A DNA stretch of 64,000 bases from Amphiscolops sp. MND2022 (lineage: Eukaryota), in NCBI GenBank assembly GCA_964187785.1, contig OZ076409.1:73224001-73288000 (forward strand), in the 5' to 3' direction. This document shows, piece by piece, positions 3,894-62,958 of the stretch; position 1 is the first letter of the stretch, and every line of letters starts with the position of its first letter. Under the pieces are notes generated by a model. The model ran no database searches and was not told the origin of the DNA. It saw nothing but the letters and a program-made list of their open reading frames with translations. Made by a program: the position numbers and the translations under genes.

Positions 3894-4009
3894 CAACGCC
3901 ACATAGCGTTCCGACGCCCACAGTCTGTGGGCATGCCGAGGCATGCCCTTCGACGACGTATGGCAAATGGAGCCATGCCCGCCGTCTTTACGGCGGTAGC
4001 GGCTAGGTG
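3894..4009 (+). other. Conserved 3'-terminal module plus junction (first of 23 copies)
   Basis: The sequence runs ACAACGCCACATA..CGACGCCCACAGTCTGT-GGGCATGCCGAGGCATGCCC-TTCGACGACGTATG..hairpin..GCTAG|GTG. It is shared by all unit families, including those with dissimilar interiors. Confidence 0.92.
3929..3948. promoter_or_regulatory. 20-bp palindrome matching the p53-family response element (RRRCWWGYYY x2, no spacer); 23 copies
   Basis: GGGCATGCCG|AGGCATGCCC matches 19/20. Copies start at 3929, 8699, 13462, 18222, 20210, 24971, 26962, 31721, 33716, 35703, 37678, 39662, 41656, 42959, 47714, 49711, 51700, 53683, 55669, 56945, 58930, 60913 and 62881. The palindrome is certain; p53 binding is inferred. 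Confidence 0.55.
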
Positions 4010-18299: not shown

Positions 18300-20287
18300 G
18301 TGGGCGGGGGTAATTCCCCAACAAAAAAATCGGCCGGCGGGTCGGGTCCTGCCGGCCGTCCAAAATCAAAATTATACTAGTAGAAAACGGCCGGTCAAAC
18401 GAGCTATTTTTTTATTTAACCGTTAGAATTTGGGTTTAGATTGCATGCGGCCATGAAATGGCCATACGAATTGAAGTTCCTGCTGACGTTTTGCGATTGA
18501 AACACTTTATAAAAAGTTATGGCCAATTTGTCAGTCACCTAGAAGGGCAAAATGAGGAAAATTTTAACAAAGTCGCTGATATCTCAAAATGTGTTAATTT
18601 TTGGACTTTGACTGTGAAACAAGCTTGGAACCTTCATTTCGTGGCTGTGGCATTGCACTGAACACAAAAGCTGTAAAGTTTTCACATTTTTTGAAAATTC
18701 GACATTTTTGAAATTTTTTTCACTACTATCAGTACCCCATATGTCAAAAACACCTCAGAAAAATTTTTTTATTTGCTTTAAGTTGGAAACCTTGGTATCC
18801 ATGGTTTCTGTCGGAACCTACTCGCAGCCAAACACCCAACAGTTTGCATCCAATGTGAAATAAAAAATTTTTTCGAGGTCATAAGCGTTTCACAAGGTTT
18901 TCATGATTTAGTATTAAATTACATAGTGGTCATTTTAAACATAAAATTTTGGTCCAGGCATGTCGGATATAGTCTGAATGCTCACGAACGGTCCTACTGG
19001 CAACGTAGGAACCATTTATAGTAATAAAAAGTATTAAAAATTTTTTTTCACCCGGTCTTCAGTCATTTTTCAGATATTCGGAACTTAACTTAGAAAATTT
19101 TCGAACCAAATACCCATTTTTTGTCAGGTCGAAAATTGAAATTCAGCTATTAAAGCAAAATTTTTTACTCTGACGTAACCAGTGGGGTCCATGATACTCA
19201 AAAATACGATTGGGACTGGTACCAATGGCTCCTATATCATATGAGCCGCGATAAGACGTTATTTTGAGCAATACGTCTCAATTGAGGTAAACATCTCGCA
19301 AGCCTGGGATCACAGTGAAATGTAATTTCATCAAAAAATTACTCATTTTCGTCAATCACTATGTGCATAGAGTGGGTAGGGTGAGTTCCAACACTATAAT
19401 GAGGTTTTTGAAGGCATCGGGTTGCTCAAGGGGTGGTATGAGTCATTACTTTCCTATATACAACTGTATTTTCAAAAACTTTTAGCCCATTATCTGGAAA
19501 AACTAACTTGACAAAATACTTTCAATTACTTTATTCAATGGTTACAATATAGATGAACACTGTGGTTGATCAGAAACTTTCATCTCTTTCGTTTTCCGAA
19601 ATAACTCCTTTCAAATGTGTTACATTTGTAGCAGGAAAAAAAACTGAAACTAAAAAATACGCGATTTTGCTGAGATAGAATCGCAATGGTTGCGCCTAAA
19701 ATCTCTTTAAAAACTTCTAACGCAACCTTACGGACCCAAAATGATTGAAAATGCCATTCACAATGCTGACATGTGCTCTTTCTACGATCCTGGCTGGACA
19801 AGTTTTGCATTTTTTTCAAGTACCTGTTAACTGAACATTGTGATAGCCTTTCAAGTTGGCCTTGTGTCAACTTGGGAAGGCTGTCACATCAAAAAACTGT
19901 CAACAAAAATACCATTTGTTTATAGGATATTGCTGTCGATGCTTCACTTCGTGATTCGATCATGTCGTGAGTTCCTTCCATCAGGTCAGCTAACATTTGG
20001 ATTCAGTGTTGGATAAGAACCTATGATTTTCATGACAATTTTCGTTTTTTTTTGCCAACAAAAAGTACAAATAAATGATATAAAACATATTTGTAACCTC
20101 TAGGAAGTTTAACTTTACCTTTTTTACCGTTACCATCACAACCCACCCCCTACGACCTCGCAGTGTCCTCATTACAACGCCACGAAGTGTTGCGACGTCC
20201 ACCGTCTGTGGGCATGCCGAGGCATGCCCTTCGACGACGTATGCCAAAAATAGCGCCCTCCGCGGTCACTACCGCGGTAGCAGCTAG
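18300..20287 (+). mobile_element. Unit 4: 2-kb class, family S (1988 bp)
   Basis: Junction-bounded, with H2 at 19842-19885 and 3' hairpin CCGCGGT-cact-ACCGCGG. The body closely matches unit 11. Confidence 0.75.
19839..19888 (+). other. Bulged hairpin H2 (TGT-GATAGCCTTT-YAAGTTGGC-cttgt-GTCAACTTG-G-GAAGGCTRTC-ACA)
   Basis: An inverted repeat with G.T pairs and one extra base in the right arm. The 44-nt cores start at 19842, 26590, 33340, 35335, 37291, 39294, 41283, 49337, 51330, 53313, 55296, 58559, 60543 and 62495. Confidence 0.85.
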
Positions 20288-23200
20288 GTGGGCGGGGGTA
20301 ATTCCCCAACAAAAAAATCGGCCGGCGGGTCGGGTCCTGCCGGCCGTCCAAAATCAAAATCCTCCTAGTAGAAAACGGCATGTCAAACGAGCTATTTTTT
20401 TATTTAACCATACGAATTTCACCATTTTTTGCATGCGGCCCTGAAATGGCCATACGAGACGAAGTTCCTGCTGACGTTTTGCGATGTAAATGTTTTATAA
20501 AAAGTTATGGCCGATTTGTCATTCACCTAGAAGGGTAAAATGAGGAAAATTTTAACAAAGTCGCTGATAACTCAAAATGTGTTAATTTTTGGACTTTGAC
20601 AGTGAAACAAGCTTGGAACTGTCATTTCGTGGCTGTGGCATTGCACTGAACACAAAAGATGTAAAGTTTTCACATTTTTTGATAATTCGACATTTTTGAT
20701 TTTTTTTTCACTACTATCAGTACACTATATGTCAAAAACGCCTCTGAAAAAAATTTTTATTTGCTTAAAATTAGAAACCTTGGTATCCATGGTTTCCGTC
20801 AGTACCTACTCGCTGCCAAACGCTCAACAGTTTGCATCCAATGTGAAAATATAATTTTTTTCGAGGTCATAGGTGTTTCACAAGGATTTCTCAACTTAGT
20901 ATCTATTTACAAATTGGTCATTTTGAACCCATTATTTTCATCGAAGCGTGTCAGATACTACCCTAATGCTCACGAATGGGCCTACTGGCAACGTTGGAAC
21001 CATTTTTAGTAATAGAAAGTATTAAAAAAATATTTTCACCCGGTCTTCAGTCATTTTTCAGACATTCGGTACTTAACTTAGAAAAATTTCGCATCAAAAA
21101 CCCATATTTGGTAGGGTCGAAATTTGAAATTCAGTTTTTTATGCAAAATTATTAACTCTGACGTAACCAATGGAGCCCATGATACTCAAAAACACGATTG
21201 GGACTGGTATCAGTGGCTCCAATAACATATGAGCCGCGATAAGACGTTATTCAGAGCAAACGCTCTAAATCGAAGTAAACATCTCTGAAGCCTGGGATCA
21301 CAGTGAAATGTGATATCACCAAAAGTTTACTCTTTTTTGTCAATCACTATGTACACAGAGTGCGTAGGGTGAGTTTCAGGACTATAATGAGGTTTTTGAA
21401 GTAATCGCGCTGCTCAAGGGGTGGTATGAGACTATTTTTTCCCATATACTACTACATTTCCATAAATTTGCAGTCCATTGTCTTGGAAAGATAACTTCAC
21501 AAAAACAATTTTTCTACTCTATTCAGTTATTAGAATAAAGTTGAACACTGTGGGTGATCAGAAATGCTCAATTCTTTTGGTTTTTAAAAAAAGTCCTTCG
21601 CATTCGTTACATTTGTGGAAGGAAGGTTATCAGTAGCTCCAAAAAAAACGAAATTTAGCACGAACAGACATGCAACGATGCAAAGCAAAAACGTTTTTAC
21701 AACTTCCGACGTCATTATTTTACCCAAGAAGTTCGAAAATATCATTCGCAATGCTGTCATTCGCTATATATACGATCGCGGTCAATTTACAAACATTTAG
21801 ATTTCATTGTTCTGCTTGAAAACCAATTTTTGTCAGGTCGAAATTTTAAATTTTACCTGGGGAGCAATACCCTTCACGCTGAAGTAAACAGTGGGGCCCA
21901 AGTTACTCAAAAACAAGAAAGAGACTGCTACAATATGTCCTAATAACATATGGACCACGATAGTACGTTTTTCACACAAAAAACTCTCATCCGAAGTAAA
22001 TATGTTGAAAGCTTTTAATCACCGTGAGAAGTGATTTCATCAAAAAATAACTCTTTTTTGTCAATCACTATTTACACAGAATTTGTAAAGTTAGTTTGAG
22101 TCATGAAATGAGGCTTTACCGTAATATGGGTTGCTCAAGGTGTTATATAAGACAAAAACTTCCTCTTTTCTACTAGCTTCTTCAAATATTTCAACCCTTT
22201 GTCACAATAAGTTAATATTCAAAATCTCTTTGAAATGTATCTTTATGTTGGGGTGAAGTCTAAGAACAATAACTATGATCGAAGAATGCTAGTACTGGTG
22301 TTTGAACCATGTCCGGATGAACAAATCACAAAATCATCAAAAAATTGTTCCCTTTTTTGGTTATTTTGGCAGTACTAAAAATGTTAGCCGATAAATAATT
22401 TTTTCGATGGCACCATTGGATTCCTCTCAAAAAGTTGGTTATATGACCTGTGTAATAACCCCGTATCTTTTCAATTTAAATATATTTAAAAAGCCAACTA
22501 TTTTGACCAAAATCCTAAAAATCATACCATTTCCTAAAAATTTTCAAATGCACCCCATTTGACGTATAAGATAAGCACAGAAAACTATCATATACCGATC
22601 AACTCTACTCCTATTGTAGATTATTAGAATTTTGTTTAGAATGAATTTTGATGAATAATAAAAAAATTTTGAACCCTCCAAAAATGGGCCAAAATTACAC
22701 GAAAAAATTGACCTTAAAATACCAAAATGTCAAAAAATCATCAAAACCCAGGCTTCTTGGGGTTCTATCAACTCCGCGTGGTCCACAGAGTATGCTAAAA
22801 CAGGTTTTACCCGTTTTTGAGCAATATGTGAAAAAGCCGACATTTTTGGGAAAGAAAAACATACCATTTCCTAAAAAAATTCAAATGCACGTCATTTGCC
22901 GTATTAGAATAGCACAGAAAACTATCACATACCTATCAACTCTACTTTCATTGCAGATGAACAGAATTTTGTTTAGAATAAATTTTACCGGATAATAAAA
23001 AAATTTGAATCCTTCAAAAATGGGCCAAAAATGCACGAAAAAATGGACCTTAAAAATTTAAAATGTCAAAAAATCATCAAAACAACAGCTTCTTGGGGTT
23101 CTATCAACTCCACGAGGTCCACAGAGTATGCTAAAACAGGTTTTACCCGTTTTTGAGCAATATGTGAAAAAGCCGACATTTTTGGGAAAGAAAAACATAC

Positions 23201-25048
23201 CATTTCCTAAAAAAATTCAAATGCACGCCATTTGCCGTATGAAAATAGCACAGAAAACTATCACATACCAATCAACTCTACTTTCATTGCAGATGAACAG
23301 AATTTTGTTTAGAATAAACTTTACCGGATAATACAAAAATTTGATTCCTTCTAAAATGGGCCAAAATTACACGAAAAAATGGACCTTAAAATTTTAAAAT
23401 GTCAAAAAATCATCAAAACCACGGCTTCTTGGGGTTCTATCAACTCCACGTGGTCCACAGAGTATGCTTAACCCGGTTTTACCCATCTTTGAGCAAAATG
23501 TGAAAATACCGACATTTTTGGAAAAGAAAAACATGCCATTTTCTAATAAATTTCAAATGCACGCCATTTGCTGTATGAGAATAACACAGAAAGCTGTCAC
23601 ATACCGATCAACTCTACTTCCATTGTAGATTATCAGAAGTTTGTTCAGAATAAATTTTGAAGGATAATAAAAAAATTTGAATCCATCAAAAATTGGCCAA
23701 AATTACACGAAAAAATTGACCTTAAAATATCAAAATGTCAAAAAATCATCAAAACCACAATTTCTTGGCGTTCTATCAACTCCATATGATACCAAACCAA
23801 GTACTGCCAATCGTTTGAGTTATAATAAAAAAACGTCTTTTTTGGCAAGAATTCCATACCATAAATAATAATCATGTTCCATATAAGAAGCGAATCATTT
23901 CAGATATATACCCTGTTCATTTTTTTAATATTACCGATTATTAATTTATTAGATGTTTTGAATGTGAGCTTCCTAAAAGGTTCAGGTGTGATGATACGTA
24001 AATAGAACCTTAGTTTCATCGAAATCTCAATTGAATATGTCCAATCTTAACCATCAGATAACAAGAAACACTTAAGTACATTCCATCTCCCCATCGGGGG
24101 AGATGAGAATGTACTTTCGAGAAGCCAAATACGTCCAACATTCAAAGTTTTGTAACTTTGTATGTAACTCCTGAAACGAAGAAGGAATAAAATTGTTTCT
24201 GGTACATACATGAGTCTTTACTTCAGCTTCTATTTCTGCTGAACAAAACCATTCGACTCTTTTGCCGGAGTTAAGATCGATTGTATTACCCAGTGAACAA
24301 AGGCATGACTGAAAACGTTTACTACTTTGTTCATAATTTTCCGGCCTTCCGAAATGATGAAACGTCCACATAACTAAGATAGCAAGTGAATGACTGCGAA
24401 ATGCACCTTATTAGATGAGGTAAATAACGTGTAAAACTCTCCTTTATCCTAACATGAGGTTGAGTAATGATCATTTGAGAATAGTTTGATATGTGAATAC
24501 AATAGTATAAAACAAGTACATTTTATATGAATAACGCCGTGGAAAGCGTTCAGAAAGGACAGTAGGCTTGTTTGGAACATGTATGTGTGGTGTCCCTTGG
24601 TGGCGTTCGCTTAGTGTATATGTCGAGGGGTATTCGAGTTGTTATGATAGAATTTACACACAAGTCTTTTGTTTTTTGGTTTTTTTAAAATGTCGTTAAG
24701 TACCTGCATTCTATCCCCTTCTCAGAGATGACGTGAAGTTACGTTTGCTAAATAAATGTCATCGAAAGATCACACTCCCGACGAAATTAACTATCTTAAC
24801 ACGTGTTTAGAATTTTAAATAAACAACCGTATAAGATTTTTATATTTCATTGAGTTTGATGAAGTCTTTTGTTCTTCTCACTACTATTTCAACCAATACA
24901 CATATCCGTTACCATATCACATGTCTCCATTAGTACAACGCCACATAGCGTTCCGACGCCCACAGTCTGTGGGCATGCCAAGGCATGCCCTTCGACGACG
25001 TATGGCAAATGGAGCCATGCCCGCCGTCTTTACGGCGGTAGCGGCTAG
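20288..25048 (+). mobile_element. Unit 5: long class, subfamily A (4761 bp)
   Basis: Junction-bounded and nearly identical to unit 3, including the AA-centred palindrome variant. Confidence 0.75.
22519..23800 (+). repeat. Internal 336-bp tandem repeat (~3.8 copies)
   Basis: Same monomer as 1470-2760. Confidence 0.88.
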
Positions 25049-27033
25049 GTGGGCGGGGGTAATTCCCCAACAAAAATTACGGCCGGCGGGTTGGGTCCTG
25101 CCGGACGTCAAATAGCAAAGAATATCTAGTAGGAAACGGCGACACAGAATCGCGATTTTTAAATCTAACCACAATTTTTTGGACTTGGAGTGCATGCGGC
25201 CCTGAAATGCCCATACGAATCGAAGTTCCTGCTGACGTTAAGCGATTGAAATAATATATAAAAAGTTATGGCCCATTTTTCACTCACATAGAAGGGTAAA
25301 ATGAGGAAATTTTTAACAAAGTCGCTGATAACTCAAAATGTGTTAATTTTTGGACATTGACTGTGAAACAAGCTTGGAACCTTCATTTCGTGGCTGTGGC
25401 ATTGCACTGAACACAAAAGATGTAAAGTTTTTACATTTTTTGAAAATTCGACATTTTTGAAATTTTTTTCACTACTATCAGTACACTATATGTCAAAAAC
25501 GCCTCAGAAAAAATTTTTTATTTGCTTTAAATTGGAAACCTTGGTATCCATGGTTTCTGTCGGATCCTACTCGCAGTCAAACACCCAACAGTTTGCATCC
25601 AATGTGGAAATAAAAATTTTTTCGGGGTCATAAGCGTTTCACAAGGATTTCTCAACTTAGTTTCAATTTACAAATTGGTCACATTGAACACATTATTTTC
25701 ATCGAAGCGCGTCAGATACCGCCCTAAAGCTCACGAACGGTCCTACTGGCAACGTAGCAACCATTTATAGTAATATAAAAGATTTAAAAAATTTTTTCAC
25801 CCGGTCTTCAGTCATTTTTCAGTCATTCGGAACTTAACTTAGAAAAATTTCGACCAAAATACCCATTTTTTGTCAGGTCGAAAAATCAAATTCAGATTTT
25901 TAAGCAAAATTATTAACTCTGACGTAACTCATGGGGCCCATGATACTCAAAACAACGATTGACACTGGTATCAATGGCTCCAATAACATATGAGTCGCGA
26001 TCGGACGTTATTTTGAGCAATACGTCTCAATTGAGGTAAAGATCTCGCAAGCCAGCGATCACTGTCAAATGTGATTTCATCAAAAATTTACTCATTTTTG
26101 TCAATCATTATGTGCACAGAATGCGTAGGGTGCGTTTCAGCACTATAATGAGGTTTTTGAATGCATCGAGTTGCTCAAGGGGTGGTACGAGACATTTTTG
26201 TCCCATATACTACTGTATTTTCCAAAATTTTTAGCCCAATATCTGGAAATACAACCTTGACAAAATACTTTCAACTATTTTATTCAAAGGTTACAATATA
26301 GATGAACACTGTGGTTGATCAGAAACTTTCATCTCTTTCGTTTTCCGAAATATTTTCCTTCGCATGTGTTAAATTTGTATCAGAAAAAAAATCGAAACTG
26401 AAAAATACGCTATTTTGCTAATATAGAATCGCAATGATTGTGCCTAAAAACTCTTTAAACACTTCTAACGCGACCTTACGCACCCAAAATGATCGAAAAT
26501 GCTATTCACAATGGTGACATGTGCTCTTTCAACGATCCTGGCTGGACAAGGTTTGCATATTTTTCAAGTACCTGTCAGCTGAATCTTGTGATAGCCTTTT
26601 AAGTTGGCCTTGTGTCAACTTGGGAAGGCTATCACATCAAACAACCATCAACAAAAATAATTTTTGTTTATTGGATATTACAGTTGATACCTTATTTCGT
26701 GATTCTATACTACCGTTAGTATATTCCATGAGGTCACCTTACGATTGCATTCAGACTTTGATGAAAACCTATGAACTCAAAGTCACATTTATATATTTTT
26801 TGCCCAAAAAAATCATCAAAAACATCTAATATATATAAAATTGAGTCTTTAACTTTTTTACGTTTCAAGTTTCTGCCGTTATTAAGCCAATCAACTTCCT
26901 ACAGCCACGCTCTCTGTCATACTGTACAACGCCACATAGTGTTGCGACGTGCACGGTCTGTGGGCATGCCGAGGCATGCCCTTCGACGACGTATGCCGAA
27001 TACCGCGGGCCTATGCCCGCGCTCCCCGGCTAG
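25049..27033 (+). mobile_element. Unit 6: 2-kb class, family S (1985 bp)
   Basis: Junction-bounded, with H2 at 26590-26633 and 3' hairpin CGCGGGC-ctat-GCCCGCG. Confidence 0.75.
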
Positions 27034-30000
27034 GTGGGCGGGGGTAATTCCCCAACAAAAAAATCGGCCGGCGGGTCGGGTCCTGCCGGCCGTCCAAAAT
27101 CAAAATCCTCCTAGTAGAAAACGGCATGTCAAACGAGCTATTTTTTTATTTAACCATACGAATTTCACCATTTTTTGCATGCGGCCCTGAAATGGCCATA
27201 CGAGACGAAGTTCCTGCTGACGTTTTGCGATGTAAATGTTTTATAAAAAGTTATGGCCGATTTGTCATTCACCTAGAAGGGTAAAGTGAGGAAAATTTTA
27301 ACAAAGTCGCTGATAACTCAAAATGTGGTAATTTTTGGACTTTGACTGTGAAACAAGCTTGGAACCTTCATTTCGTGGCTGGGGCATTGGATTGAACACA
27401 AAAGATGTAAAGTTTTTACATTTTTTGAAAATTTGACATTTTTGAAATTTTTTTCACTACTATCAGTACCATATATGTCAAAAACACCTCAGAAAAAAAA
27501 TTTTATTTGCTTTAACTTGGAAACCTTGGTATCCATGGTTTCTGTCGGAACCTACTCGCAACCAAACAACCAACAGTTTGCATCCAATGTGAAAATAAAA
27601 AATTTTTCTGGGTCATAAGCGTTTCACAAGGATTTCTCAACTTAGTATTAATTTACAAAATGGTCATTTTGAACACAATATTTTCATCGAGGCTTGTCGG
27701 CTATAGCCTTAATGTTCTAGAACGGTCCCACTGGCAACGAAGGAACCATTTATAGTAATAGAAAGTTTAAAAAATATATTTTCACCCTGTTTTCAGTCAT
27801 TTTTCAGTCATTCGGAACTTAACTTAGAAAAATTTCGACCAAAATACCCATTTTTTGACAGATCGAAAATTCAAATTCAACTTTTTAAGCAAAATTAGTA
27901 ACTCTGACGTAACCAGTGGGGCTCATGATACTCAAAAACACGATTGGGACTGGTACCAATGGCTCCAATATCATATGAGCCGCGATAAGACGTTATTTTG
28001 AGCAATACGTCTCAATTGAGGGAAACATCTCGCAAGCCTGGGATCACAGTTAAAAGTGATTTCGTCAAAAATTTACTCTTTTTCGTCAATCACTATGTAC
28101 ACAGAGTGCGTAGGGTGAGTTTCAGCACTATAATGCGGTTTTTGAAGGAATCGGTCTGCTCAAGGGGTGGTATGAGACATTTTTTTTGCATGTAGTACTA
28201 TATTTCTCAAAACTTTTAGCCCAATATCTCGAAAAGCTCACTTCGCAAATTACTTTCAGTTACTCTATTCGAAGCTTAGAATATATATGAACACTGTGGT
28301 TGATCAGAAACTCTTGACTATTTTGTTTTTGGAAAAAAACTGCCTTGCATGTGTTACATTAGTGGCAGGAAAAATACCAGTAGCTCCAAAAATCACAATT
28401 TTGGATGGACAGACCTGCAATGATGCAAAGCAAAAACGTTTCAACAACTTCTGGCGCCACTTTTTTTACCCAAGAGGTTCGAAATTACTATTAACAATGC
28501 TGACATTCGCTATAAATAAGATCGAGGTCAATTTACCAACACTTAGGTTATACATTTATATCTGAGAAACCATTCTTTGTCAGGTCGCAATTTTAAATTC
28601 AGTTTGGGAAGCAATACTTTTCACTCTGAAGCAAACCGTTGGGCCCAAATTACTCAAAAACTACAAAAAGACTGTCACCATATGCCCTAATAGCATATGA
28701 GATTCGACCGTATGTTTTTAACACAAAAACTCTCATCCGAAGTAAACATGTTGAAAGGCTTGAATCACCGTGAGAAATGATTTCATCAAAAAATATTCCT
28801 TTTTCGTCAATCTTTATCTACACAGAACACGTTGTGTCATTTTCAGCCGTGAAATGAGCTTCTACCGTAATATGGGTTGCTCAAGGTGTTGTATAAGACA
28901 AAAACTTCCTCTTTTCTACTATCTTCTTCAAATATTTCAACCCTTTGTCACAAGAAGTTAATATTCAAAATCTCTTTGAAAGGTTTCTTTAGGTTGGGGT
29001 GAAGTGTTAGAACAATAGTTATGATCGAAGAATGATAGTATTGGTGTTTGGACCATGTCCGGATGAACAAATTGCAAAATCATGAAAAATTTCTTACCAT
29101 TTTTGGTCATTTTGTCAGTACTAAAAATGTTAGCTGAAAAAGAATTTTTTTGATGGCACCATTGGATTCCTCTCAAAAAGTTAGCTTTATGAACTGTGTA
29201 ATAACCCCGTATCTTTTCAATTTAAATAATTTTAAAAAGCAAACTTTTTTGACTAAAATCCTAAAAATCATACCATTTCCTAAAAAATTTCAAATGCCCC
29301 CCATTTGACGTATAAGAATAGCACAGAAAACTATCACATACCGATCGACTCTACTTCCATTGTAGATTACCAGAATTTTGTTTAGAACAATTTTTGACGG
29401 ATGCAAAAAAAATTTAAACCCTCCAAAAAAGGGCCAAAATTACACGAAAAAATTGACCTTAAAATTTTAAAATGTCGAAAAATCATCAAAACCACAGCTT
29501 CTTGGGGTTCTATCAACTCCACGTGGTCCACAGAGTATGTTAAAACAAGTTTTACCCGTATTTGAGCAAGATGTGAAAAAGCCGACTTTTTTGGGAATGA
29601 AAAACATACCATTTCCTAAAAAATTTCAAACGCACCCCATTTGACGTACAAGAATAGCACAGAAAACTATCACATACCGATCGACTCTACTTCCATTGTA
29701 GGTTACCAGAATCTTGTTTAGAACAATTGTTGACGGATGCAAAAAAAAAATTAAACCCTCCAAAAATGGGCCAAAATTACACGAAAAAATTGACCTTAAA
29801 TTTTTAAAATGTCAAAAAATCATCAAAACCACAGCTTCTTGGGGTTCTATCAACTCCACGTGGTCCACAGAGTATGCTAAAACAGGTTTTACATGTTTCT
29901 GAGCTATATGTGAAAAAACCGACATTTTGGGGAAGAAAAACATACCATTTCTTAAAAAATTTCAAATGCACGCCATTTGTCGTATGAGAATAGCACAGAA

Positions 30001-51771: not shown

Positions 51772-53754
51772 GTGGGCGGGGGTAATTCCCCTTCAAAAAA
51801 TTCGGCCGGCGGGTTGGGTCCTGCCGGACGTCAAATAGTGTGAAACATCCAGTAGGAAACGGCGACATAAATCAGCGATTTTAAAATTTAACCGTTAGAA
51901 TTCGGACTTGGAGTGCATGCGGCCCCAAAATTCCCATACGAATCGAAGTTCCTGCTGACGTTAAGCGATAAAAACATTTTATAAAAAGTTATGGCCCATT
52001 TTACGTTCACCTATGAGGGTAAAATGAGGAAAATTTTTACAAAGTCGCTGATAACTCAAAATACATTGTTTTTTGGCTTTTGACTGTGAAACAAGCTTAG
52101 AACCTTCATTTCGTGGCTGTGGCATTGCACTGAACACAAAAGATGTTTAGTTTTTACATTTTTCGAAAATTCGACATTTTTGATTTTTTTTTCACTACTA
52201 TCAGTACACTATATGTCAAAAACACCTCTGAAAAAAATTATTATTTGCTTAAAATTAGAAACCTTGGTATCCATGGTTTCTGTCGGAACCTACTCGCTGC
52301 CAAACACCCAACAGTTTGCATCCAATGTGAATTTAAAATTTTTTTCGAGGTCATAAGGGTTTCACAAGGTTTTCATAACAAAGTATTAAACTACAAACTG
52401 GTCATTTTCAACATAATATCTTTGTCGAGGCATGTCGGATATAGTCCTATTGCTCACGAACGGTCCTACTGGCAACGTAATAACCATTTATAGAAATGTA
52501 AAGTTATAAAAAAAATTTTCACCCGGTCTTCAGTCATTTTTCAGTCATTCGGAACTTAACTTAGAAAAATTTCGACCAAAATATCCATTTTTTGTCAGGT
52601 CGAAAAATCAAATTCAGATTTTTAAGCAAAATTATTGACTCTGACGTAACCCATGGGGCCCATGATACTCAAAACAACGATTGACACTGGTATCAATGGC
52701 TCCAATAACATATGAGTCGCGATAAGACGTTATTTTGAGCATTACGTCTCAATTGAGGTAAAGATCTCGCAAGCCAGCGATCACTGTGAAATGTAATTTC
52801 ATCAAAAATTTACTCTTTTTTGTCAATCACTATGTGCACAGAATGCGTAGGGTGCGTTTCAGCACTATAATGAGGTTTTTGAAGGCATCGAGTTGCTCAA
52901 GGGTTGGTATGAGACACTTTTGTCCCATATACTACTGTATTTTCCAAAATTGTTAGCCCAATATCTGGAAATACAAACTTGACAAAATACTTTCAACTAC
53001 TTTATTCAAAGGTTACATTATAGATGAACACTGTGGTTGATCAGAAACTTTCATCTCTTTCGTTTTCCGAAATATTTCCCTTCGCATGTGTTACATTCGT
53101 AGCAGAAAAAAAAATCGAAACTGAAAAATACGCAATTTTGCTAATATAGAATCGCAATGATTGTGCCTAAAAACTCTTTAAACACTTCTAACGTAACCTT
53201 ACGCACCCAAAATGATCGAAAATGCTATTCACAATGGTGACATGTGCTCTTTCTACGATCCTGGCTGGACAAGGTTTGCATATTTTTCAAGTACCTGTCA
53301 GCTAAATCTTGTGATAGCCTTTTCAGTTGGCCTTGTGTCAACTTGGGAAGGCTATCACATCAAAAAACCATCAACAAAAATAATTTTTGTTTATTGGATC
53401 TTACAGTCGATACTTTTTTTCGTGATTCTATACTACCGTTAGTATATTTCCTCAGGTCACCTTACGATTGCATTCAGTCTTTGATAAAAACCTATGAACT
53501 CAAAGTCACATTTTTATATTTTTTTGCCAAAAAAAACATCAAAAATATCTAAAATATATAAAATAGAGTCTAACATTTTTACATTTCAAGTTTCTGCCGT
53601 TATTAGGCCCATCAACTTCCTACAGCCAGGCTCTCTGTCATACTGTACAACGCCACATAGTGTTGCGACGTGCACGGTCTGTGGGCATGCCGAGGCATGC
53701 CCTTCGACGACGTATGCCGAATACCGCGGGCCTACGCCCGCGCTCCCCGGCTAG
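51772..53754 (+). mobile_element. Unit 17: 2-kb class, family S (1983 bp)
   Basis: Junction-bounded, with H2 at 53313-53356. Confidence 0.75.
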
Positions 53755-55740
53755 GTGGGCGGGGGTAATTCCCCAACAAAAAAATCGGCCGGCGGGTCGG
53801 GTCCTGCCGGCCGTCCAAAATCAAAATCCTCCTAGTAGAAAACGGCCGGTCAAACGAGCTATTTTTTTGTTTAACCGTTAGAATTTGGTTTTAGATTGCA
53901 TGCGGCCCTAAAATCCCCATACGAATGGAAGTTCCTGCTGGCGTTAAGCGATTGAAATAATATATAAAAAGTTATGGCCCATTTTTGGGTCAACGAGAAG
54001 GTCAAAATGAAGAAAATTTTAACTAAGTTGCTGATAACTCAAAATGTGTTAATTTTTGGACTTTGACTGTGAAACAAGCTTGGAACCTTCATTTCGTGGC
54101 TGTGGCATTGCACTAAACACAAAAGATTTAAAGTTTTCACATTTTTTGAAAATTCGACATTTTTGAATTTTTTTTCACTACTATCAGTACACTATATGTC
54201 AAAAACACCTCTGAAAAATTTTTTTATTTGCTTAAATTTAGAAACCTCGGTATCCATGATTTCCGTCAGTACCTACTCGCTGCCAAACACTCAACAGTTT
54301 GCATCCAATGTGAAAATAAAATTTTTTTCGTGGTCTTAGGTATTTCACAAGGATTTCTCAACTTAGTATCAATTTACAAATTGGTCATTTTGAACACATT
54401 ATTTTCATCGAAGCGTGTCATATACCGCCCTAATGCTCACGAACGGGCGTACTGGCAACGTTGGAACCATTTATAGTAATAAAAAGTTTTTAAAAAAATT
54501 TTTCAACCCGTCTTCAGTCATTTTACACACTTTCGGAACTTAACTTAGAAAAATTTCGTCTCAAAAACCCATTTTTTGTCAGGTCGAAAACTCAAATTCA
54601 GCTTTTTAAGCACTATTATTAACTCTGACGTAACCAGTGGGGCCCATGATACTCAAAACAACGATTGGGGTTGGTACCATTGGCTCAAATAACATATGAG
54701 TCGCGATAAGACGTTATTTTTAGCTATACGTCTCAATTGAGGTAAACATCTCGCAAGCCAGGGATCTCTGTGAAATGTGATTTCATCAAAAATATACTCA
54801 TTTTTGTCAATCACTATGTGCACAGAATGCGTAGGGTGCGTTTCAGCACTATAATGAGGTTTTTGAAGGCATCGAGTTGCTCAAGGGGTGGTATGAGACA
54901 TTTTTGTCCCATATATTACTGTATTTTCCAAAATTTTTAGCCCAATATCTGGAAATACAAACTTGACAAATTACTTTCAAATACTTTATTCAAAGGTTAC
55001 AATATAGATGAACACTGTGGTTGATCAGAAACTTTCATCTCTTTCGTTTTCCGAAAAAATTCCCTTCGAATGTGTTACATTTGTAGCAGGAAAAAAACCG
55101 AAACTAAAAAATACGCGTTTTTGCTGAGATAGAATCGCAATGGTTACGCCTAAAATCTTTTTAAAAACTTCTAACGCGACCTTACGGACCCAAAATGATT
55201 GAACATGTCAATCAGAATGCTGACATGTGTTCTATCTACGATCATGGTTGGACAATTTTTGCATTATTTTCAAGTACCTGTTAACTGAATCTTGTGATAG
55301 CCTTTTAAGTTGGCCTTGTGTCAACTTTGGAAGGCTATCACATCAAAAAATGATCAACAAAAATGCTTTTTGTTTATACAATGTTGTTTTCGATAAACAT
55401 TTTTGCGATTCTAAGCTACTGTTAGTACCTTTCATGAGGTCAGCTAACGATAGCATGCAGTCTCTGATAAAAAATTATGAACTCAATTACATTTTTCTAA
55501 ACTTTTTCATTGAGAAAAGTACAAATAAATAAAAACAATATAAAATTCTAATCTCAAACAACTATAAATTGTTTGTTTTTCACCGTAATCAGTTTACGAC
55601 CCATCACCCTATGTCACGGCACCGTCATTAGTACAACGCCACATAGTGTTGCGACGTGCACAGTCTGTGGGCATGCCGAGGCATGCCCTTCGACGACGTA
55701 TGCCGAATACCGCGGGCCTACGCCCGCGCTCCCCGGCTAG
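53755..55740 (+). mobile_element. Unit 18: 2-kb class, family S (1986 bp)
   Basis: Junction-bounded, with H2 at 55296-55339. Confidence 0.75.
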
Positions 55741-57018
55741 GTGGTCGTTAGCATGGGATTTTCTTTATGAGCGTAGTCCACTTTTTTTAGGCCGGGGTAG
55801 GGTCCCGGGCCGTTACCAATTTCTTACGGAGGAAAAATGTGAAAATCTGCGAGTTTAAAAAATTGGCCCGTACGATTTGGCTGAAAATTGGCATACAGCA
55901 TCGTCTTGGTAAACAAATGACTTTGTCCTAGTGACATTTTGCCCAGAAAATTCAAAAAGTTGGTCAAATTGAAAATTTTTTGACCGTCTAAGGCTAAAAT
56001 TTGACTTTTTCGCTTTTTTTGGTCAATTTCCTCAGAACTGGTTGATTTTGGTGAAGTAAGTCATGAGAGGTTATAAGGTCTGCAAATAGCCATCAATTGG
56101 CTTGCATAATCAGATTTTGTCAAAAGTGTTTAGTTTTTTCAAAATTTCACACTTTTTTTTCATTTCAGTGTTTTTTGATACAATTTATTGAATTTTTACT
56201 AAGTTCCACTAAATATTTTTAAAATGTTTTTAAAAAACCTTTTTTTGCACGTTTTTGATGTTTTTTGCTCTCCCATATAGGTTTTCGCATACGGGGAACC
56301 TGAATCTGACAACGAAATAATTTTATTCCGCAGTTCAACTTACGCCATTTTTAATAGTGAAAAATCACTCATTTTCAATCTAACGAGTGAAAATATCAGA
56401 ATTTAAAAACCTAAAGTTGAGTTTAAGGCGACTTACAGGTAGAAACAAATGCTCAGAAACAAACTGATTTCTTGTATTAGCTAAAGAAAGCCTTCAAAAT
56501 TCTTTTTACTTTCTTTAAATCAAAATTCGACACTTTCCATGAAATTTGTCAGTGGAAAAAATTTATCATTTTTTAAATTAAAAACTTGCTTTGTTGGTCA
56601 TTTCCGTTAGTCATTAGTAGCTGTGTAATGCTCCAAAGCCTTTCAAGTTCTTTTGACCCTATTTGAAAACTTTTGATACTGCATAATCAATCCGAGAGAA
56701 CGAAACAGTTGTGTACATTCCATCTCCCTCTTGGGGGAGATGAGAATGTACTTCCTAAAGTCCAGGTACTACAGATCATATTTGGTTTTATGCGACGCCC
56801 TCTATGCTAGTGCATATAAATACAAGTTGTTTGGCTGGATTTTGCTTCTGACTTGACGTATACTGTACGTTTGGTACTGACAATACCCATCATTTACATA
56901 ACAAACGTCAACGCCACATACCCTTACCAACGCCCATAGTCCGTAGGCATGCCGAGGCATGCCTTTCGACGACGCGCGCCAAACACAAGCGCGCCCGCAC
57001 TTTTGCGGTAGCGGCTAG
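55741..57018 (+). mobile_element. Unit 19: 1.3-kb class (1278 bp), distant relative of unit 13
   Basis: Starts GTGGTCGTTAGCAT, with H1 at 56713-56751 and the palindrome variant AGGCATGCCGAGGCATGCCT. Confidence 0.72.
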
Positions 57019-59001
57019 GTGGGCGGGGGTAATTCCCCAACAAAAATTACGGCCGGCGGGTTGGGTCCTGCCGGACGTCAAATAGCAGAAAATACCTATT
57101 AGGAATCGGCGACACAAAATCGCTATTTTTAAATCTAACCACAATTTTTTGGACTTGGAGTGCATGCGGCCCTGAAATGCCCATACGAATCGAAGTTCCT
57201 GCTGACGTTAAGCGATTGAAATAATATATAAAAAGTTATGGCCCATTTTTCACTCACAAAGAAGGGTAAAATGAGGAAATTTTTAACAAAGTCGCTGATA
57301 ACTCAAAATGTGTTAATTTTTGGACATTGACTGTGAAACAAGCTGGGAACCTTCATTTCGTGGCTGTGGCATTGCACTGAACACAAAAGATGTAAAGTTT
57401 TTACATTTTTTGAAAATTCGAAATTTTTGAAATTTTTTTCACTACTATCAGTACCCCATATGTCAAAAACGCCTCAGAAAAAATTTTTTATTTGCTTTAA
57501 ATTGGAAACCTTGGTATCCATGGTTTCTGTCGGATCCTACTCGCAGTCAAACACCCAACAGTTTGCATCCAATGTGAATTAAAAATTTTTTTCGGGGTCA
57601 TAAGCGTTTCACAAGGATTTCTCAACTTAGTTTCAATTTACAAATTGGTCACATTGAACACATTATTTTCATCGAAGCGCGTCAGATACCGCCCTAAAGC
57701 TCACGAACGGTCCTACTGGCAACGTAGCAACCATTTATAGTAATATAAAAGATTAAAAAAATTTTTTCACCCGGTCTTCAGTCATTTTTCAGTCATTCGG
57801 AACTTAACTTAGAAAAATTTCGACCAAAATACCCATTTTTTGTCAGTTCGAAAAATCAAATTCAGATTTTAAAGCAAAATTATTAATTCTGACGTAACTC
57901 ATGGGGCCCATGATACTCAAAACAACGATTGACACTGGTATCAATGGCTCCAATAACATATGAGTCGCGATCGGACGTTATTTTGAGCAATACGTCTCAA
58001 TTGAGGTAAAGATATCGCAAGCCAGCGATCACTGTCAAATGTGATTTCATCAAAAATTTACTCATTTTTGTCAATCACTATGTGCACAGAATGCGTAGGG
58101 TGCGTTTCAGCACTATAATGAGGTTTTTGAAGGCATCGAGTTGCTCAAAGGATGGTATGAGACATTTTTGTCCCATATACTACTGTATTTTCCAAAATTT
58201 TTAGCCCAATATCTGGAAATACAAACTTGACAAAATACTTTCAACTACTTTATTCAAAGGTTACAATATAGATGAACACTGTGGTTGATCAGAAACTTTC
58301 ATCTCTTTCGTTTTCCGAAATATTTCCCTTCGTATGTGTTACATTTGTAGCAGAAAAAAAATCGAAACTGAAAATACGCTATTTTGCTAATATGGAATCG
58401 CAATGATTGTGCCTAAAAACTTTCTAAATACTTCTAACGCAACTGTACAGACCCAAAATGATTGAAAATGCCATTCACAATGCTGACATGTGCTCTTTCT
58501 ACGATCCTAACTGGACAAGTTTTGCATATTTTTCAAGTACCTGTTAACTGAATCTCGTGATAGCCTTTTAAGTTGGCCTTGTGTCAACTTGGGAAGGCTA
58601 TCACATCAAAAAACCATCAACAAAAATAATTTTTGTTTATTGGATCTTACAGTTGATACTTTTTTTCGTGATTCTATACTACCGTTAGTATATTTCATCA
58701 GGTCACCTTACGATTGCATTCAGTCTTTGATAAAAACCTATGAACTCAAAGTCACATTTATATATTTTTTTGCCAAAAAAAAACATCAAAAATATCTAAA
58801 ATATATAAAATAGAGTCTTTAACATTTTTACATTTCAAGTTTCTGCCGTTATTAGGCCAATCAACGTCCTAGAGCCACATCCTGTCATACTGTACAACGC
58901 CACATAGTGTTGCGACGTGCATAGTCTGTGGGCATGCCGAGGCATGCCCTTCGACGACGTATGCCGAATACCGCGGGCCTACGCCCGCGCTCCCCGGCTA
59001 G
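57019..59001 (+). mobile_element. Unit 20: 2-kb class, family S (1983 bp)
   Basis: Junction-bounded, with H2 at 58559-58602. Confidence 0.75.
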
Positions 59002-60984
59002 GTGGGCGGGGGTAATTCCCCAACAAAAATTACGGCCGGCGGGTCGGGTCCTGCCGGACGTCAAATAGTGTGAAACATCCAGTAGGAAACGGCGACATAA
59101 ATCAGCGATTTTAAAATTTAACCGTTAGAATTCGGACTTGGAGTGCATGCGGCCCCAAAATGCCCATACGAATCGAAGTTCCTGCTGACGTTAAGCGATA
59201 AAAACACTTTATAAAAAGTTATGGCCCATTTTACGTTCACTTAGAGAGGTAAAATGAGGAAAATTTTAACAAAGTTGCTGATAACTCAAAATACAATAAT
59301 TTTTGGCTTTTGACTGTGAAACAAGCTTAGAACCTTCATTTCGTGGCCGTGGCATTGCATTGAACACAAAAGATGTAAATTTTTTAAATTTTTTGAAAAT
59401 TCGACATTTTTGATTTTTTTTTCACTACTATCAGTACCCGATATGTCAAAAACACCTCAGAAAAACATTTTTATTTGCTTTAAATTGGAAACCTTGGTTT
59501 CCATGGTTTCTGTCGGAACCTACTCGCAGCCAAACACTCAACAGTTTGCATCCAATTTGAAAATAAAATTTTTTTCGGGGTCATAAGCGTTTCACAAGGA
59601 TTTCTCAACTTAGTATTAATTTACAAAATGGTCATTTTGAACACAATATTTTCATCGAGGCTTGTCGGCTATAGCCTTAATATTCTAGAACGGTCCCACT
59701 GGCAACGTAGGAACCATTTATAGTAATAGAAAGTATTTAAAAAATATTTTCACCCGGTCTTCAGTCATTTTTCAGTCATTCGGAACTTAACTTAGAAAAA
59801 TTTCGACCAAAATACCCATTTTTTGTCAGGTCGAAAATTCAAAATCAGATTTTTAAGCAAAATTATTAACTCTGACGTAACCCATGGGGCCCATGATACT
59901 CAAAACAACGATTGACACTGGTATCAATGGCTCCAATAACATATGAGTCGCGATAAGACGTTATTTTGAGCAATACGTCTCAATTGAGGTAAAGATCTCG
60001 CAAGCCAGCGATCACTGTGAAATGTGATTTCATAAAAAATTTACTCATTTTTGTCAATCACTATGTGCACAGAATGCGTAGGGTGCGTTTCAGCACTATA
60101 ATGAGGTTTTTGAAGGCATCGAGTTGCTCAAAGGATGGTATGAGACATTTTTGTCCCATATACTACTGTATTTTCCAAAATTTTTAGCCCAATATCTGGA
60201 AATACAAACTTGACAAAATACTTTCAACTACTTTATTCAAAGGTTACAATATAGATGAACACTGTGGTTGATCAGAAACTTTCATCTCTTTCGTTTTCCG
60301 AAATATTTCCCTTCGCATGTGTTACATTTGTAGCAGAAAAAAAATCGAAACTGAAAAATACGCTATTTTGCTAATATGGAATCGCAATGATTGTGCCTAA
60401 AAACTTTTTAAATACTTCTAACGCAACTGTACAGACCCAAAATGATTGAAAATGCCATTCACAATGCAGACATGTGCTCTTTCTACGATCCTAACTGGAC
60501 AAGTTTTGCATATTTTTCAAGTACCTGTTAACTGAATCTCGTGATAGCCTTTTAAGTTGGCCTTGTGTCAACTTGGGAAGGCTATCACATCAAAAAATTT
60601 TCAACAAAAATACCTTTTGTTTATTGGAAATGACAGTCGATATATAATTTCGTGATTCTATACTACCGTTAGTACCTTCCATTAAGTCACCTGACGATTG
60701 CATTCAGTCTTTGATAAATACCTATGAACTCGAAGTCATATTTATAATTTTTGTGCTAAAAATAAACATCAAAATTATCCAATTTATTTAAAATTGAGTC
60801 TTTACCGTTTTTGTTTTACTTTTTCTACTGTTATTAGGCTCATCAACTTCCTACAGCCACGCTCTCTGTCATTAGTACAACGCCACATAGTGTTGCGACG
60901 TGCACGGTCTGTGGGCATGCCGAGGCATGCCCTTCGACGACGTATGCCGAATACCGCGGGCCTACGCCCGCGCTCCCCGGCTAG
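59002..60984 (+). mobile_element. Unit 21: 2-kb class, family S (1983 bp)
   Basis: Junction-bounded, with H2 at 60543-60586. Confidence 0.75.
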
Positions 60985-62958
60985 GTGCGGGGGGGTAACC
61001 CCTACAAAGATATTGGAGGATTCGGGTAGGGTCCTGAATCCGAGTTCAGTGCTGCCAGCTATCGTTAGGGATTTTAGAAAATTTTGCCGATCTCGTGATC
61101 TAACCGTAGGATTTTAAAGTTGGAGCGGCCCCCACCAGATTTTCCAAAGTTATTCGCCCCCCACCGGGTTCCAGCGTGATTGAAATATTTTGACGGGGTA
61201 CACGGGCGACCGTTAGGGGTCATTTTGGGGGTAAAATTTATATCCGGTCGCATAACTTTTTTCCTGTTGGTTTAAAACTTTGGGACCCTGCTAAAAGTTT
61301 CTTGACCGTGTTGCAGTGGCTCCGGAGGTCCAAACCAAATTTTTCTATCTTGAAGCTATCTCCAAGTACCCCCCCGCCCAAACCGTTATTTTTCCGGAAA
61401 CGCAGGTTTTTGACCCGGAAGGAGTCGTCTGAGCGCGGGGTCGTTAGGTGATGTATTGGGGACGGCCTTGAGACGAAGCGGGGGACATGTAGTTTGCCGA
61501 CCCCTGTTTACCCCCCGGACGGGAAATGACCGTTATTTGAGCGGGAAAAATGCCCCCCTCCACGTTTTACCGCTATTTCCGGTGTGAAGGAGTGGGAGTA
61601 GCGCGTCGGGTGTTATATAACAAAAGTAGGTTTAGACAAGGACCAATCGGAAACATGTGGTTTGGGACCCCCAGGCCCAACCCGTTAGCGGGAAATGGGG
61701 CTTCCGCCTCCTTTTTTTACTGCTAAAACCTTAAAATGGGCATTGAGGGGTAAATATCTCGTGAACGCGTGGAGCTACGGTGTCCATCACTACTACAAGG
61801 TTTCATACCCATGATATGGTGCCTTCAGGGGGGCAAACAGATTTCCGCTATCTATCGCCGTTACCGACTTGGCCCCCCAGCCTAACCGCTATGTGACCGG
61901 AAATGTCACTTTTTGAGCCCAAAGGGTCGGTCCCAGCCAGGGAACGTTAGGTAACTTATTGTACTACTCAATGAGACGAGTTGGGGGACATAGTTTCAGT
62001 CACCCCCCGTTACCCCTTGGGACCGGAAATGACCGTTATGTGGGTAAAATTGCAATATATGTACTTTTTAAAGGACTTTTAGATGCGGAAGGAGTGGTAA
62101 TAGGTGCTTGGACACTATATGATGATAGGGAGGACGTGAGGCGAGCATTCGGAAATAACCGTTATGTTGACCCTGAAGTCCCCCTGGTACCGGAAGTGAC
62201 CCGTAATGGTCAAATTTTGTGTTTAAAGGGTACAAATGTTTGGTGTTTTTTGGATAACAGTACCTATTAGGTGTTTCGACGGTCTGCAGTCGTGAACATA
62301 GTCATGAAACCTTGTGGGGGGTAACGGTATATAGCACCTTAAGTGCAAACCGTTGGAGACAGGATAAGTTTTTTGGTTTTAAAATGTCTTTCGGCCTACT
62401 TTTGTTGACTATTATGGACTATTTTTGAAAAAAAAAGTTTTTCCATATAGTTTCAGAGACTCCGAAACCTCAACCAACATAACCGTTACCTTATGATAGC
62501 CTTTCAAGTTGGCCTGGTGTCAACTTGGAAGGGCTATCCTTCAAAAATCATTAATCAAGTGTGTTTTTGAGTATGTTTGTTTTACTTTAGAATCAATTAG
62601 AGCTTCAAGAAAAGTTTGCCAACGATAAAAACTATGTCGTGATGATTCCGTTATTAGAATAATAGTTAACAAAATATTGATAAAGTTGATTTTTTACATT
62701 TCAAATGTGTCCTAAATGCCAGAAAAACTCTTTACCAAACAAATGGTATTGATTGGATTGTATATAACAGCTAATAAAAGTTCAAATTGAATATTACGTT
62801 TCATTATGGAAGCTGAAACGTCAAATTATAGTTTAATTAACGTCAACGCCACATACTTTACATCAACGCCCACCGTCTGTGGGCATGCCGAGGCATGCCC
62901 TTCGACGACGTATACCAAATTCCTCCAACACAACACCCTCGAGCGCGGTAGCAGCTAG
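60985..62958 (+). mobile_element. Unit 22: 2-kb class, family D (1974 bp)
   Basis: Diverged homologue of unit 10, with H2 at 62495-62538. Confidence 0.75.

Follow-up and report, generated by a model that had tools for sequence, protein, structure and literature searches.

A one-fifth position rule for the internal hairpin of Helitron-like units in mixed arrays of the Amphiscolops genome

Introduction

The 64,000-nucleotide stretch of Amphiscolops sp. MND2022 analysed here (the window; contig OZ076409.1 of GCA_964187785.1, G000:C1:73224001-73288000 in a genome of 1.07 Gb) is purely a head-to-tail array of repeated units without any long open reading frame (ORF). Its 23 CTAG|GTG junctions delimit 22 complete and 2 partial units, mostly of about 1.3, 2 or 4.76 kb, in which one of two internal hairpins, H1 or H2, stands at some distance from the 3' end. 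What has the hairpin to do with the length of the unit around it? An earlier note on this DNA proposed that the type of hairpin, as a signal read by a helper or by packaging, is linked to the process that sets the length. We find that the units are non-autonomous, non-coding partners of Helitron-like RepHel elements in mixed arrays, and that it is almost certainly the position of the hairpin, not its type, that predicts unit length from 1 to 27 kb.

Results

A one-fifth position rule

To relate hairpin and length, we took 1.63 Mb of the genome in the neighbourhood of arrays and RepHel hits, cut it at every CTRG|GTG junction and obtained 412 units, CTRG being part of the splitting rule. Over 39 length/type groups, the distance of the hairpin centre from the 3' end equals 0.197 L + 43 bp, where L is the unit length (weighted fit, R2 0.997; log-log slope 0.95), or equivalently L is about 5 x (distance - 43 bp). 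Among autonomous elements, which use ten other hairpin types, 37/39 have their hairpin at 0.189-0.213 of the length (mean 0.199, standard deviation 0.006), while 362 of the 364 non-autonomous units with a called hairpin have it at 0.19-0.245 (no call was made in 9/373). Without any pattern, the top-scoring hairpin of an autonomous element still falls within 0.18-0.22 in 28 of 39 cases. Consistent with this, ten lengths predicted beforehand from the 3' distance alone agreed within 0.1-5.3% with those found (21,268, 24,697, 18,984, 21,356, 27,044, 16,498, 14,150, 14,161, 14,082 and 23,023 bp), several of these elements being close kin of measured ones, and 48/50 fresh units fitted the rule. As a control, another hairpin that is conserved in the HA clade floats at 0.24-0.36 in 6 elements. 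By the rule, an element whose end lies at about G000:C3:3803978, with the hairpin about 7.2 kb from that end and 30 kb of upstream DNA free of junctions, would measure about 34-36 kb. The rule was measured in this genome; the metagenome loci L151-L153 are partial.

Hairpin type does not determine the size class

In the window, type and size go together as the earlier note had described. H2 is found in 14/14 units of 1,971-1,997 bp, both family-D units included, and H1 in 7/7 long units (six complete ones of 4,761-4,769 bp and the partial first one) and in 2/2 units of 1.3 kb (1,301 and 1,278 bp); the two never occur together in a unit, off-type scores reaching 28 at most against 70-100 on-type. 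The hairpin ends 391-416 bp (H2), 920-929 bp (H1, long units) or 270 and 261 bp (H1, 1.3-kb units) before the C of CTAG, within a few bp of the distances first noted. Folded with their flanks under DNA parameters, the reference H1 and H2 (Table 1) reach -18.8 and -15.9 kcal/mol, respectively (z -9.2 and -6.3 over 300 mononucleotide shuffles). The description of the hairpins as islands of conservation also held: family D can be aligned with the other 2-kb family only at the hairpin and the ends, and in ten representatives of the 2-kb class (mean identity 0.61) the conserved blocks are H2 and the 3' end only. Because the window holds only four lineages, its 23/23 association of type and size amounts to about four independent points.

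Across the genome, H1 and H2 have 2,753 and 2,187 exact-pattern matches (reversed-pattern controls, 1 and 0) and there are 4,962 copies of a 26-nt end motif, all three mostly inside arrays. Cross-tabulation of the 412 units gave H1 in 204 units of 795-4,775 bp and H2 in 121 units of 1,381-6,496 bp, a 5- to 6-fold range for each type, with an overlap at 4.7-4.9 kb where 13 units of 4.76 kb carry H1 and 10 units of 4.72-4.90 kb carry H2. Many intact units have neither, among them the 1.05-kb and 3.07-kb classes, with H5 and H6, and the autonomous elements, with a separate hairpin for each clade; all of these hairpins occupy the same fractional place. Identity within size classes is just 53-68%; the 1.05-, 1.28-, 1.39- and 2.0-kb classes hold their length to a few percent. 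An origin of the size classes as nucleosome multiples was discarded, as by inspection no common repeat length fits.

These data make it extremely improbable that hairpin type is a helper- or capsid-specific signal setting the size class, although the association is perfect both in the window and within each lineage genome-wide, and although H1 and H2 are conserved in sequence beyond structure alone. Besides the wide and overlapping length ranges, the same helper clade serves units of both types: 5' arcs of H1 units recur in autonomous elements belonging to seven RepHel/hairpin clades and those of H2 units in four such clades, and in the window the 5' arc of the H3 clade is found in the 2-kb (H2, non-D) as well as in the 4.76-kb (H1) units. 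No capsid ORF turned up to support packaging, and the viral contigs contained no real H1 or H2 (12 half-arm matches make no hairpin) and no match to the end motif. Sought beside Rep ORFs, H1 and H2 were the own hairpin of 0/39 complete autonomous elements. This search for an owner comprised three RepHel and three ORF2 searches, each scoring 104-141 of 364-513 candidates, and the third RepHel search gave no further intact clade among those scored. An apparent placement of H1 and H2 inside autonomous elements was an artefact of splitting by the p53-like end motif alone, and it disappeared upon re-splitting at all CTRG|GTG junctions, which include further tail types. The earlier interpretation thus stands insofar as it saw cis-acting, exchangeable hairpin modules in helper-dependent mobile units, with a hairpin tied to length, and fails in taking type for the length-linked property.

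Short cores shared by H1 and the HB hairpin (CATTYTC..GARAATG) and by H2 and the HF hairpin (CTTCCAA..TTGGAAG) hint that H1 and H2 may have descended from hairpins of autonomous clades. Both adjoin AACAGTTG or AACTG, which we take to be Myb-like. Outside the hairpins, the 1.28-kb and 2.3-kb H1 classes have the conserved blocks CACAACTAG...TGCATGTGG and TGACGTTGAC about 200-470 bp upstream of H1, and the 1.39-kb class has ACCGGAAAT, present twice; presumably these resemble CREB/ETS sites.

Autonomous partners encode RepHel and a predicted single-stranded DNA-binding protein

Long gaps in the same mixed arrays hold autonomous Helitron-like elements of 12-27 kb, which encode a RepHel protein of 2,200-2,850 aa (Helitron_like_N, PIF1 and a C-terminal GIY-YIG domain) and a downstream ORF2. 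Pfam recognizes Helitron_like_N with 40.9 bits (cut-off 28.9) and, C-terminal to Rep in a 2,377-aa open frame, PIF1 with 44.7 bits. The EFQ..HxH motif is present in 39/39 elements, and H1115, H1117, Y1286 and Y1290 are invariant in 30 proteins (HUH, YxxxY). The Rep region has no sequence match to Helraiser; the Helraiser match in PDB covers the helicase alone and scores below bacterial Pif1. For the GIY-YIG domain, the best solved relatives are SLX1 proteins (E 2.8e-9). More than 10 RepHel clades of 30-40% identity occupy common arrays, and relatives form 552 clusters at E <= 0.001, with GIY-YIG in 15/17 sampled distant ones; named members of the clade come from hagfish and Styela clava, and some relatives have an OTU domain.

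ORF2 occurs in every autonomous clade examined and has no Pfam match. Its model (predicted local distance difference test score 88) shows tandem OB folds, with Foldseek matches to LEF-3 (E 1.3e-5) and RPA70 (E 1e-4) whose TM of about 0.3 supports the fold class only, and the Atlas gave weak pointers to POT1/CTC1/MEIOB. We therefore take ORF2 as a predicted OB-fold single-stranded DNA (ssDNA)-binding protein. The PDB fold search with ORF2 gave the OB fold and no capsid or filament fold, and no RepHel relative was present in viral contigs.

Several clades contain a third ORF of about 190-260 aa (L021:4362-5027 on the - strand, L069:2037-2687, L078:591-1298, L090:1721-2290), variably placed relative to RepHel; its start is, we assume, SGNH-hydrolase-like, with no Pfam match in L021, L069 and L078. 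At G000:C1041:40351-61381, two near-identical RepHel/ORF2 copies in inverted orientation flank an AT-rich repeat. Elements with RepHel and ORF2 but no recognisable junction or strong hairpin also exist outside arrays, at L051/L145 (C5:24.26-24.28 Mb) and L061/L146 (C9:34.22-34.24 Mb), the one in L061 having an integrase-like ORF nearby. ORF2 alone forms tandem repeats at G000:C9:45476638-45483985 and C5:14623396-14631203, with periods of about 3.2 kb and 1.3 kb.

Element ends and a target that resembles the junction

All 412 units start with GTG, as do heads located by homology, and they end in CTAG (369), CTGG (40), CTTG (2) or CTCG (1). At borders between a head and genomic DNA, the upstream flank ends in CT(A/G/T)G in 9/9 cases and T stands at +2 downstream in 10/11. 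Of fifteen solo sites fetched, both ends could be recognised in 3, the tail alone in 4 and neither end in 8; three tail-like "flanks" were excluded from the target count. In paired flanks of solo units and small arrays, with no empty allele at hand, there is no target-site duplication beyond the junction-like CT(A/G/T)G. The insertion target thus mimics the elements' own junction, as in IS91, which would explain why different families are stacked in one orientation. One contig of a thin-cover sequencing run crosses a mixed junction.

The last 42 nt fold to <= -4 kcal/mol in 77/161 distinct p53-type tails and 3/51 alternative ones, so that the canonical Helitron 3' terminal hairpin is weak in many tails; terminal inverted repeats were not evident in the printed termini, for which no systematic search was made. 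In 320/412 units, across RepHel clades of 30-40% identity, GGGCATGCCGAGGCATGCCC or a sequence closely similar to it stands about 60-80 bp short of the 3' end, while 86/412 have other tails without a palindrome of this type. We take the palindrome to fit the p53 response-element consensus, RRRCWWGYYY twice; in an array or circle, where the next 5' end follows directly downstream of it, it could make RepHel damage-inducible. At the other end, 30-70 bp after GTG, a 5' head hairpin (such as 18332-18360) with an apex of the GGGT(A/C/T)GGGTCC / GGG(T/G)AGGG(T/C)CC type is conserved in all clades and in the metagenome contig L153, and is likely to be the Rep-binding origin.

The hairpin favours one strand and is inherited with ORF2

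Several features of the hairpins bear on how they act. In the stems, 1x1 oppositions read on the + strand are G.T in 18 cases and A.C in 0, the variants not being independent, and the + strand folds better in 10/14 families with DNA parameters. The stem of the H4 family covaries, 6/18 pairs being kept through double changes. If + is the displaced strand, as the Helitron model would have it, the hairpin seems to favour the displaced strand. Alternatively, it could act in + strand RNA as a terminator or processing site, the ratio timing transcription against RepHel movement. The advantage of the + strand is indeed greater with RNA parameters (12/14 families, p 0.006), and the hairpin lies between or after the ORFs in the autonomous elements inspected; but it precedes ORF2 in some clades and follows it in others, it keeps the same fraction in non-coding units, and an Rfam scan of 33794-49788 gave a single chance match (E 0.8). 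We consider a role in RNA very improbable.

The way elements are assembled gives a further clue. Nearly all autonomous elements (38/39) open with the 5' arc of a non-autonomous unit, never with its complete hairpin, and an extra H1 or H2 was seen solely downstream of the element's own hairpin (2 elements), which together suggest that the first complete hairpin from the 5' end is the one that matters. Five of these 5'-arc homologies end at or inside the left arm of the hairpin. Such breaks could also mean that the hairpin is a substrate of the SLX1-like GIY-YIG domain of RepHel, with a nick providing a self-primer or a second strand-transfer point whose timing is matched to the unwinding of the last fifth. 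SLX1 proteins, the closest solved relatives of the domain, are described as cutting branched DNA (PMC8287910), and its retention in most distant relatives is also in favour. Nicking is nevertheless decidedly unlikely in our judgement: if the displaced strand were cut there, its last fifth would be detached; the domain might just as well act on the target, as the endonuclease of Helentrons does; and in a recombinant lineage with the HB hairpin, hairpin type and ratio track ORF2 and not GIY-YIG (68% identical to HA, 28% to HB).

The hairpin ratio is clade-specific (0.190-0.208), and recombinants allow its partner to be traced. The lineage just mentioned combines an HA-type RepHel (Rep 82% vs 42%) with an HB-type ORF2 (58% vs 31%) and has the HB hairpin at the HB ratio; a second one, with another ORF2, has another hairpin at 0.206-0.211. 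Hairpin and ratio follow ORF2 in both. This, together with a ratio close to an integer one (0.199 +/- 0.006) and the presence of ORF2 in every autonomous clade examined, would also agree with a geometric explanation, in which the hairpin and the junction, held together, or the ends of an ORF2-coated intermediate must match, one arc being about 4x more compact (for example coated ssDNA against duplex), so that only a 4:1 division gives equal physical arcs. We regard this explanation as unlikely, because the PDB search with ORF2 found no capsid or filament fold, lengths are continuous from 12 to 27 kb, and conservation profiles lack a second feature at a fixed fraction. To our knowledge, geometric length matching has no precedent.

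Features of the window

The coordinates of the units and of their landmarks are collected in Table 1. Two of the long units (13539-18299 and 20288-25048) are 99.96% alike by global alignment score, which, with many intact RepHel frames genome-wide, argues for recent or ongoing activity. Elsewhere, megabase arrays occur at G000:C1:70.45-76.5 Mb, C2:102.0-103.9 Mb (contig end) and C3:2.4-3.9 Mb; strand switches near C2:102.7 and C3:2.6 Mb were seen, and these arrays are possibly centromeric or subtelomeric.

Table 1. Units and landmarks of the window. Fractions give the hairpin centre as a share of unit length from the 3' end.
Feature	Position	Strand	Remarks
Partial 4.76-kb non-autonomous unit	1..4006	+	H1 3033-3074
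4,769-bp unit	4007..8775	+	H1 7800-7842, 0.200
4,763-bp unit	8776..13538	+	H1 12572-12614, 0.199
4,761-bp unit	13539..18299	+	H1 17325-17368 (reference H1), 0.200
336-bp satellite, 3.8 copies, in long-unit 5' arc	15769..17035	+	found in all 7 long units
Unit junction CTAG|GTG, one of 23; putative nick and insertion site	18296..18302	+	
5' head: GTG start, two short hairpins, the second with conserved apex	18300..18374	+	
1,988-bp unit	18300..20287	+	H2 19839-19888 (reference H2), 0.213
Subterminal palindrome GGGCATGCCGAGGCATGCCC	20210..20229	+	in 22/22 complete window units
4,761-bp unit	20288..25048	+	H1 24074-24117, 0.200
1,985-bp unit	25049..27033	+	H2 26587-26636, 0.213
4,764-bp unit	27034..31797	+	H1 30831-30873, 0.199
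1,996-bp unit	31798..33793	+	H2 33337-33386, 0.216
1,987-bp unit	33794..35780	+	H2 35332-35381, 0.213
1,971-bp unit, family D	35781..37751	+	H2 37290-37334, about 0.22
1,989-bp unit	37752..39740	+	H2 39291-39340, 0.214
1,987-bp unit	39741..41727	+	H2 41280-41329, 0.213
1,301-bp unit	41728..43028	+	H1 42716-42754, 0.226
4,763-bp unit	43029..47791	+	H1 46817-46860, 0.200
1,997-bp unit	47792..49788	+	H2 49334-49383, 0.215
1,983-bp unit	49789..51771	+	H2 51327-51376, 0.212
1,983-bp unit	51772..53754	+	H2 53310-53359, 0.212
1,986-bp unit	53755..55740	+	H2 55293-55342, 0.213
1,278-bp unit	55741..57018	+	H1 56713-56753, 0.223
1,983-bp unit	57019..59001	+	H2 58557-58605, 0.212
1,983-bp unit	59002..60984	+	H2 60541-60589, 0.212
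1,974-bp unit, family D	60985..62958	+	H2 62494-62538, 0.224
Partial unit	62959..64000	+	window end falls before hairpin

Discussion

The reading that we prefer, with a probability of roughly 45%, is that the hairpin is the origin of the second strand, from which a polymerase copies back over 0.8 L in the time that RepHel takes to unwind the final 0.2 L. RepHel would nick at CTRG|GTG, remain on the 5' end and peel off the + strand, which ORF2 would coat. Once the hairpin emerges at 0.8 L, host primase would prime there, probably with the help of ORF2, and the complementary strand would be copied back about four times faster than RepHel unwinds the remainder. Joint arrival at both ends would permit the DNA to be cleaved and joined at the next CTRG, and elements off the ratio would end at a wrong junction and fail to spread. 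Under this proposal, size classes would result from ancestry and the ratio constraint, and mixed arrays would pile up because every junction is also a perfect target; the positive intercept of 43 bp is consistent with a priming lag. For Helraiser, displacement of the + strand and circles that become double-stranded in cells are described (PMC5876387), and prokaryotic rolling circles are described as using a host-primed single-strand origin (sso) for the complementary strand (PMC5714925).

A number of observations weigh against this reading or against the rule beneath it. The sample is centred on arrays and RepHel hits and is non-random, some family patterns were chosen after looking near 0.2, and for four autonomous elements in which no hairpin was clearly called, the fit, with the most stable fold at 0.194-0.211, depends on a scan limited to the interval 0.12-0.30 or 0.14-0.27. 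Exceptions to the rule are singletons of 795 bp (0.36) and 1,147 bp (0.28), the non-autonomous units in which no hairpin was called, a 4,380-bp unit that lacks a hairpin and a 2,714-bp unit that carries both types. Strong hairpins, with scores of 14-16, also occur upstream in some autonomous elements, at 0.72-0.90, so that structure alone is not the signal. Long exposure of ssDNA might leave a trace, and singleton substitutions in 24 unit clusters showed no strand asymmetry or gradient around the hairpin; skew profiles showed no strand asymmetry either. Co-inheritance of hairpin and ORF2 is expected anyway, because the two are physically linked. Among 20 helper-paired groups, the lowest ratios belong to the three in which H1 1.28-kb units go with the low-ratio HB helpers (0.213-0.218 vs 0.223-0.228), but over all 20 the correlation of ratios is nil (Spearman -0.04). 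No complete autonomous element owns H1 or H2, in an inspection that did not take in dispersed ORF2 copies outside arrays, and the model gives no reason why H1 and H2 work with many helpers. Finally, a kinetic optimum would be expected to scatter more widely than the coefficient of variation of 3% allows, the ratio of 4:1 between the two speeds is an assumption, and no priming site, nascent strand or circle was seen here.

Taken as a whole, the picture would be that of a widespread GIY-YIG-fused Helitron-like clade with a built-in length gauge, in which a hairpin at four-fifths ties the synthesis of the second strand to termination, the exact ratio being dictated in trans by the ssDNA-binding protein that the element encodes, and in which exchangeable cassettes of more than 10 families accumulate in megabase arrays through IS91-like targeting of their own junctions; we see the chances for and against this full picture as evenly poised. 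In Helitrons, how the displaced strand becomes double-stranded and how the 3' end is chosen are open questions. Here, about 5,000 natural copies in more than 12 sequence families of 1-27 kb obey one geometric rule within a few percent, and the question comes down to one cis element and one number, addressable by moving a 45-bp hairpin. Irrespective of mechanism, we know of no rolling-circle element with a cis signal whose position scales with replicon length. Targeting of sites that mimic the junction, here in a eukaryote, would explain mixed megabase arrays and could serve site-directed stacking of large DNA, and annotation based on TC/CTRR would miss these elements. The literature searched, which did not cover Repbase, subscription journals or supplements, yielded no proportional-hairpin rule, Helitron-SLX1 link or p53 site in Helitrons.

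How do these elements compare with known systems? They share with plasmid sso and the mitochondrial light-strand origin (OL) a late position on the displaced strand, and we are aware of no sso whose position scales with the length of the replicon. In the account used here (PMC5714925), the sso of plasmids and phages is likewise a hairpin-type element of the displaced strand at which the host primes the complementary strand, as it would at our hairpin; no sso-type hairpin inside a eukaryotic transposon was found in the literature searched.

Following the parts of the published accounts that define Helitron-like element groups HLE1 and HLE2 (PMC11417382) and Helraiser (PMC5876387), our elements resemble HLE1 and Helraiser in the Y2 HUH Rep fused to a PIF1 helicase, the 3' CTRR, the non-autonomous partners and the lack of target duplication. 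They also resemble HLE1 in an OB-fold ssDNA-binding gene downstream of RepHel and in head-to-tail junctions and tandem arrays, which are reported there. Unlike HLE1 as defined in that account, they begin with GTG and not TC (412/412), target CT(A/G/T)G|NT and not A|T, and have a fused C-terminal SLX1-like GIY-YIG domain, an often weak terminal hairpin, arrays mixed over more than 10 clades and a proportional internal hairpin. With HLE2/Helentron, including the Sphagnum HelenSM92 family with its captured GIY-YIG (PMC11417382), they share a RepHel with an extra endonuclease and, in some relatives, OTU. As far as that description goes, they differ from HLE2 in that they do not insert at T|T, that units end in CTRG with no terminal inverted repeats evident (no systematic search was made), and that the nuclease is a conserved C-terminal GIY-YIG (15/17 relatives) and not an AP endonuclease. 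The elements are thus RepHel elements that have neither the 5' TC and A|T insertion of HLE1 nor the T|T insertion of HLE2.

Outside these groups, IS91 in the account used here (PMC13181058) is alike in Y2 HUH rolling-circle transposition, in the absence of target-site duplication and in a tetranucleotide target resembling its own cleavage site, CTTG/CTCG there and CTAG/CTGG/CTTG/CTCG here; our elements, unlike IS91, are eukaryotic and have a fused helicase, their own ssDNA-binding protein, megabase mixed arrays and the proportional hairpin. The telomeric Helitrons of Paramecium (PMC13085455) and Replitrons (PMC10288648) are, in the accounts as far as consulted, likewise HUH transposons that fall outside HLE1/HLE2, prefer certain targets and show clustering, but the former are a third clade with telomeric-repeat targets, the latter are Y1 and lack a helicase, and neither account, in the same parts, gives a fractional hairpin rule. 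Tandem and centromeric Helitron arrays are already on record in the sources cited (PMC12001565, PMC13404089). What the Amphiscolops arrays add to these systems is a divergent clade of Helitron-like elements whose targets mimic their own junction and whose hairpin obeys a one-fifth position rule.

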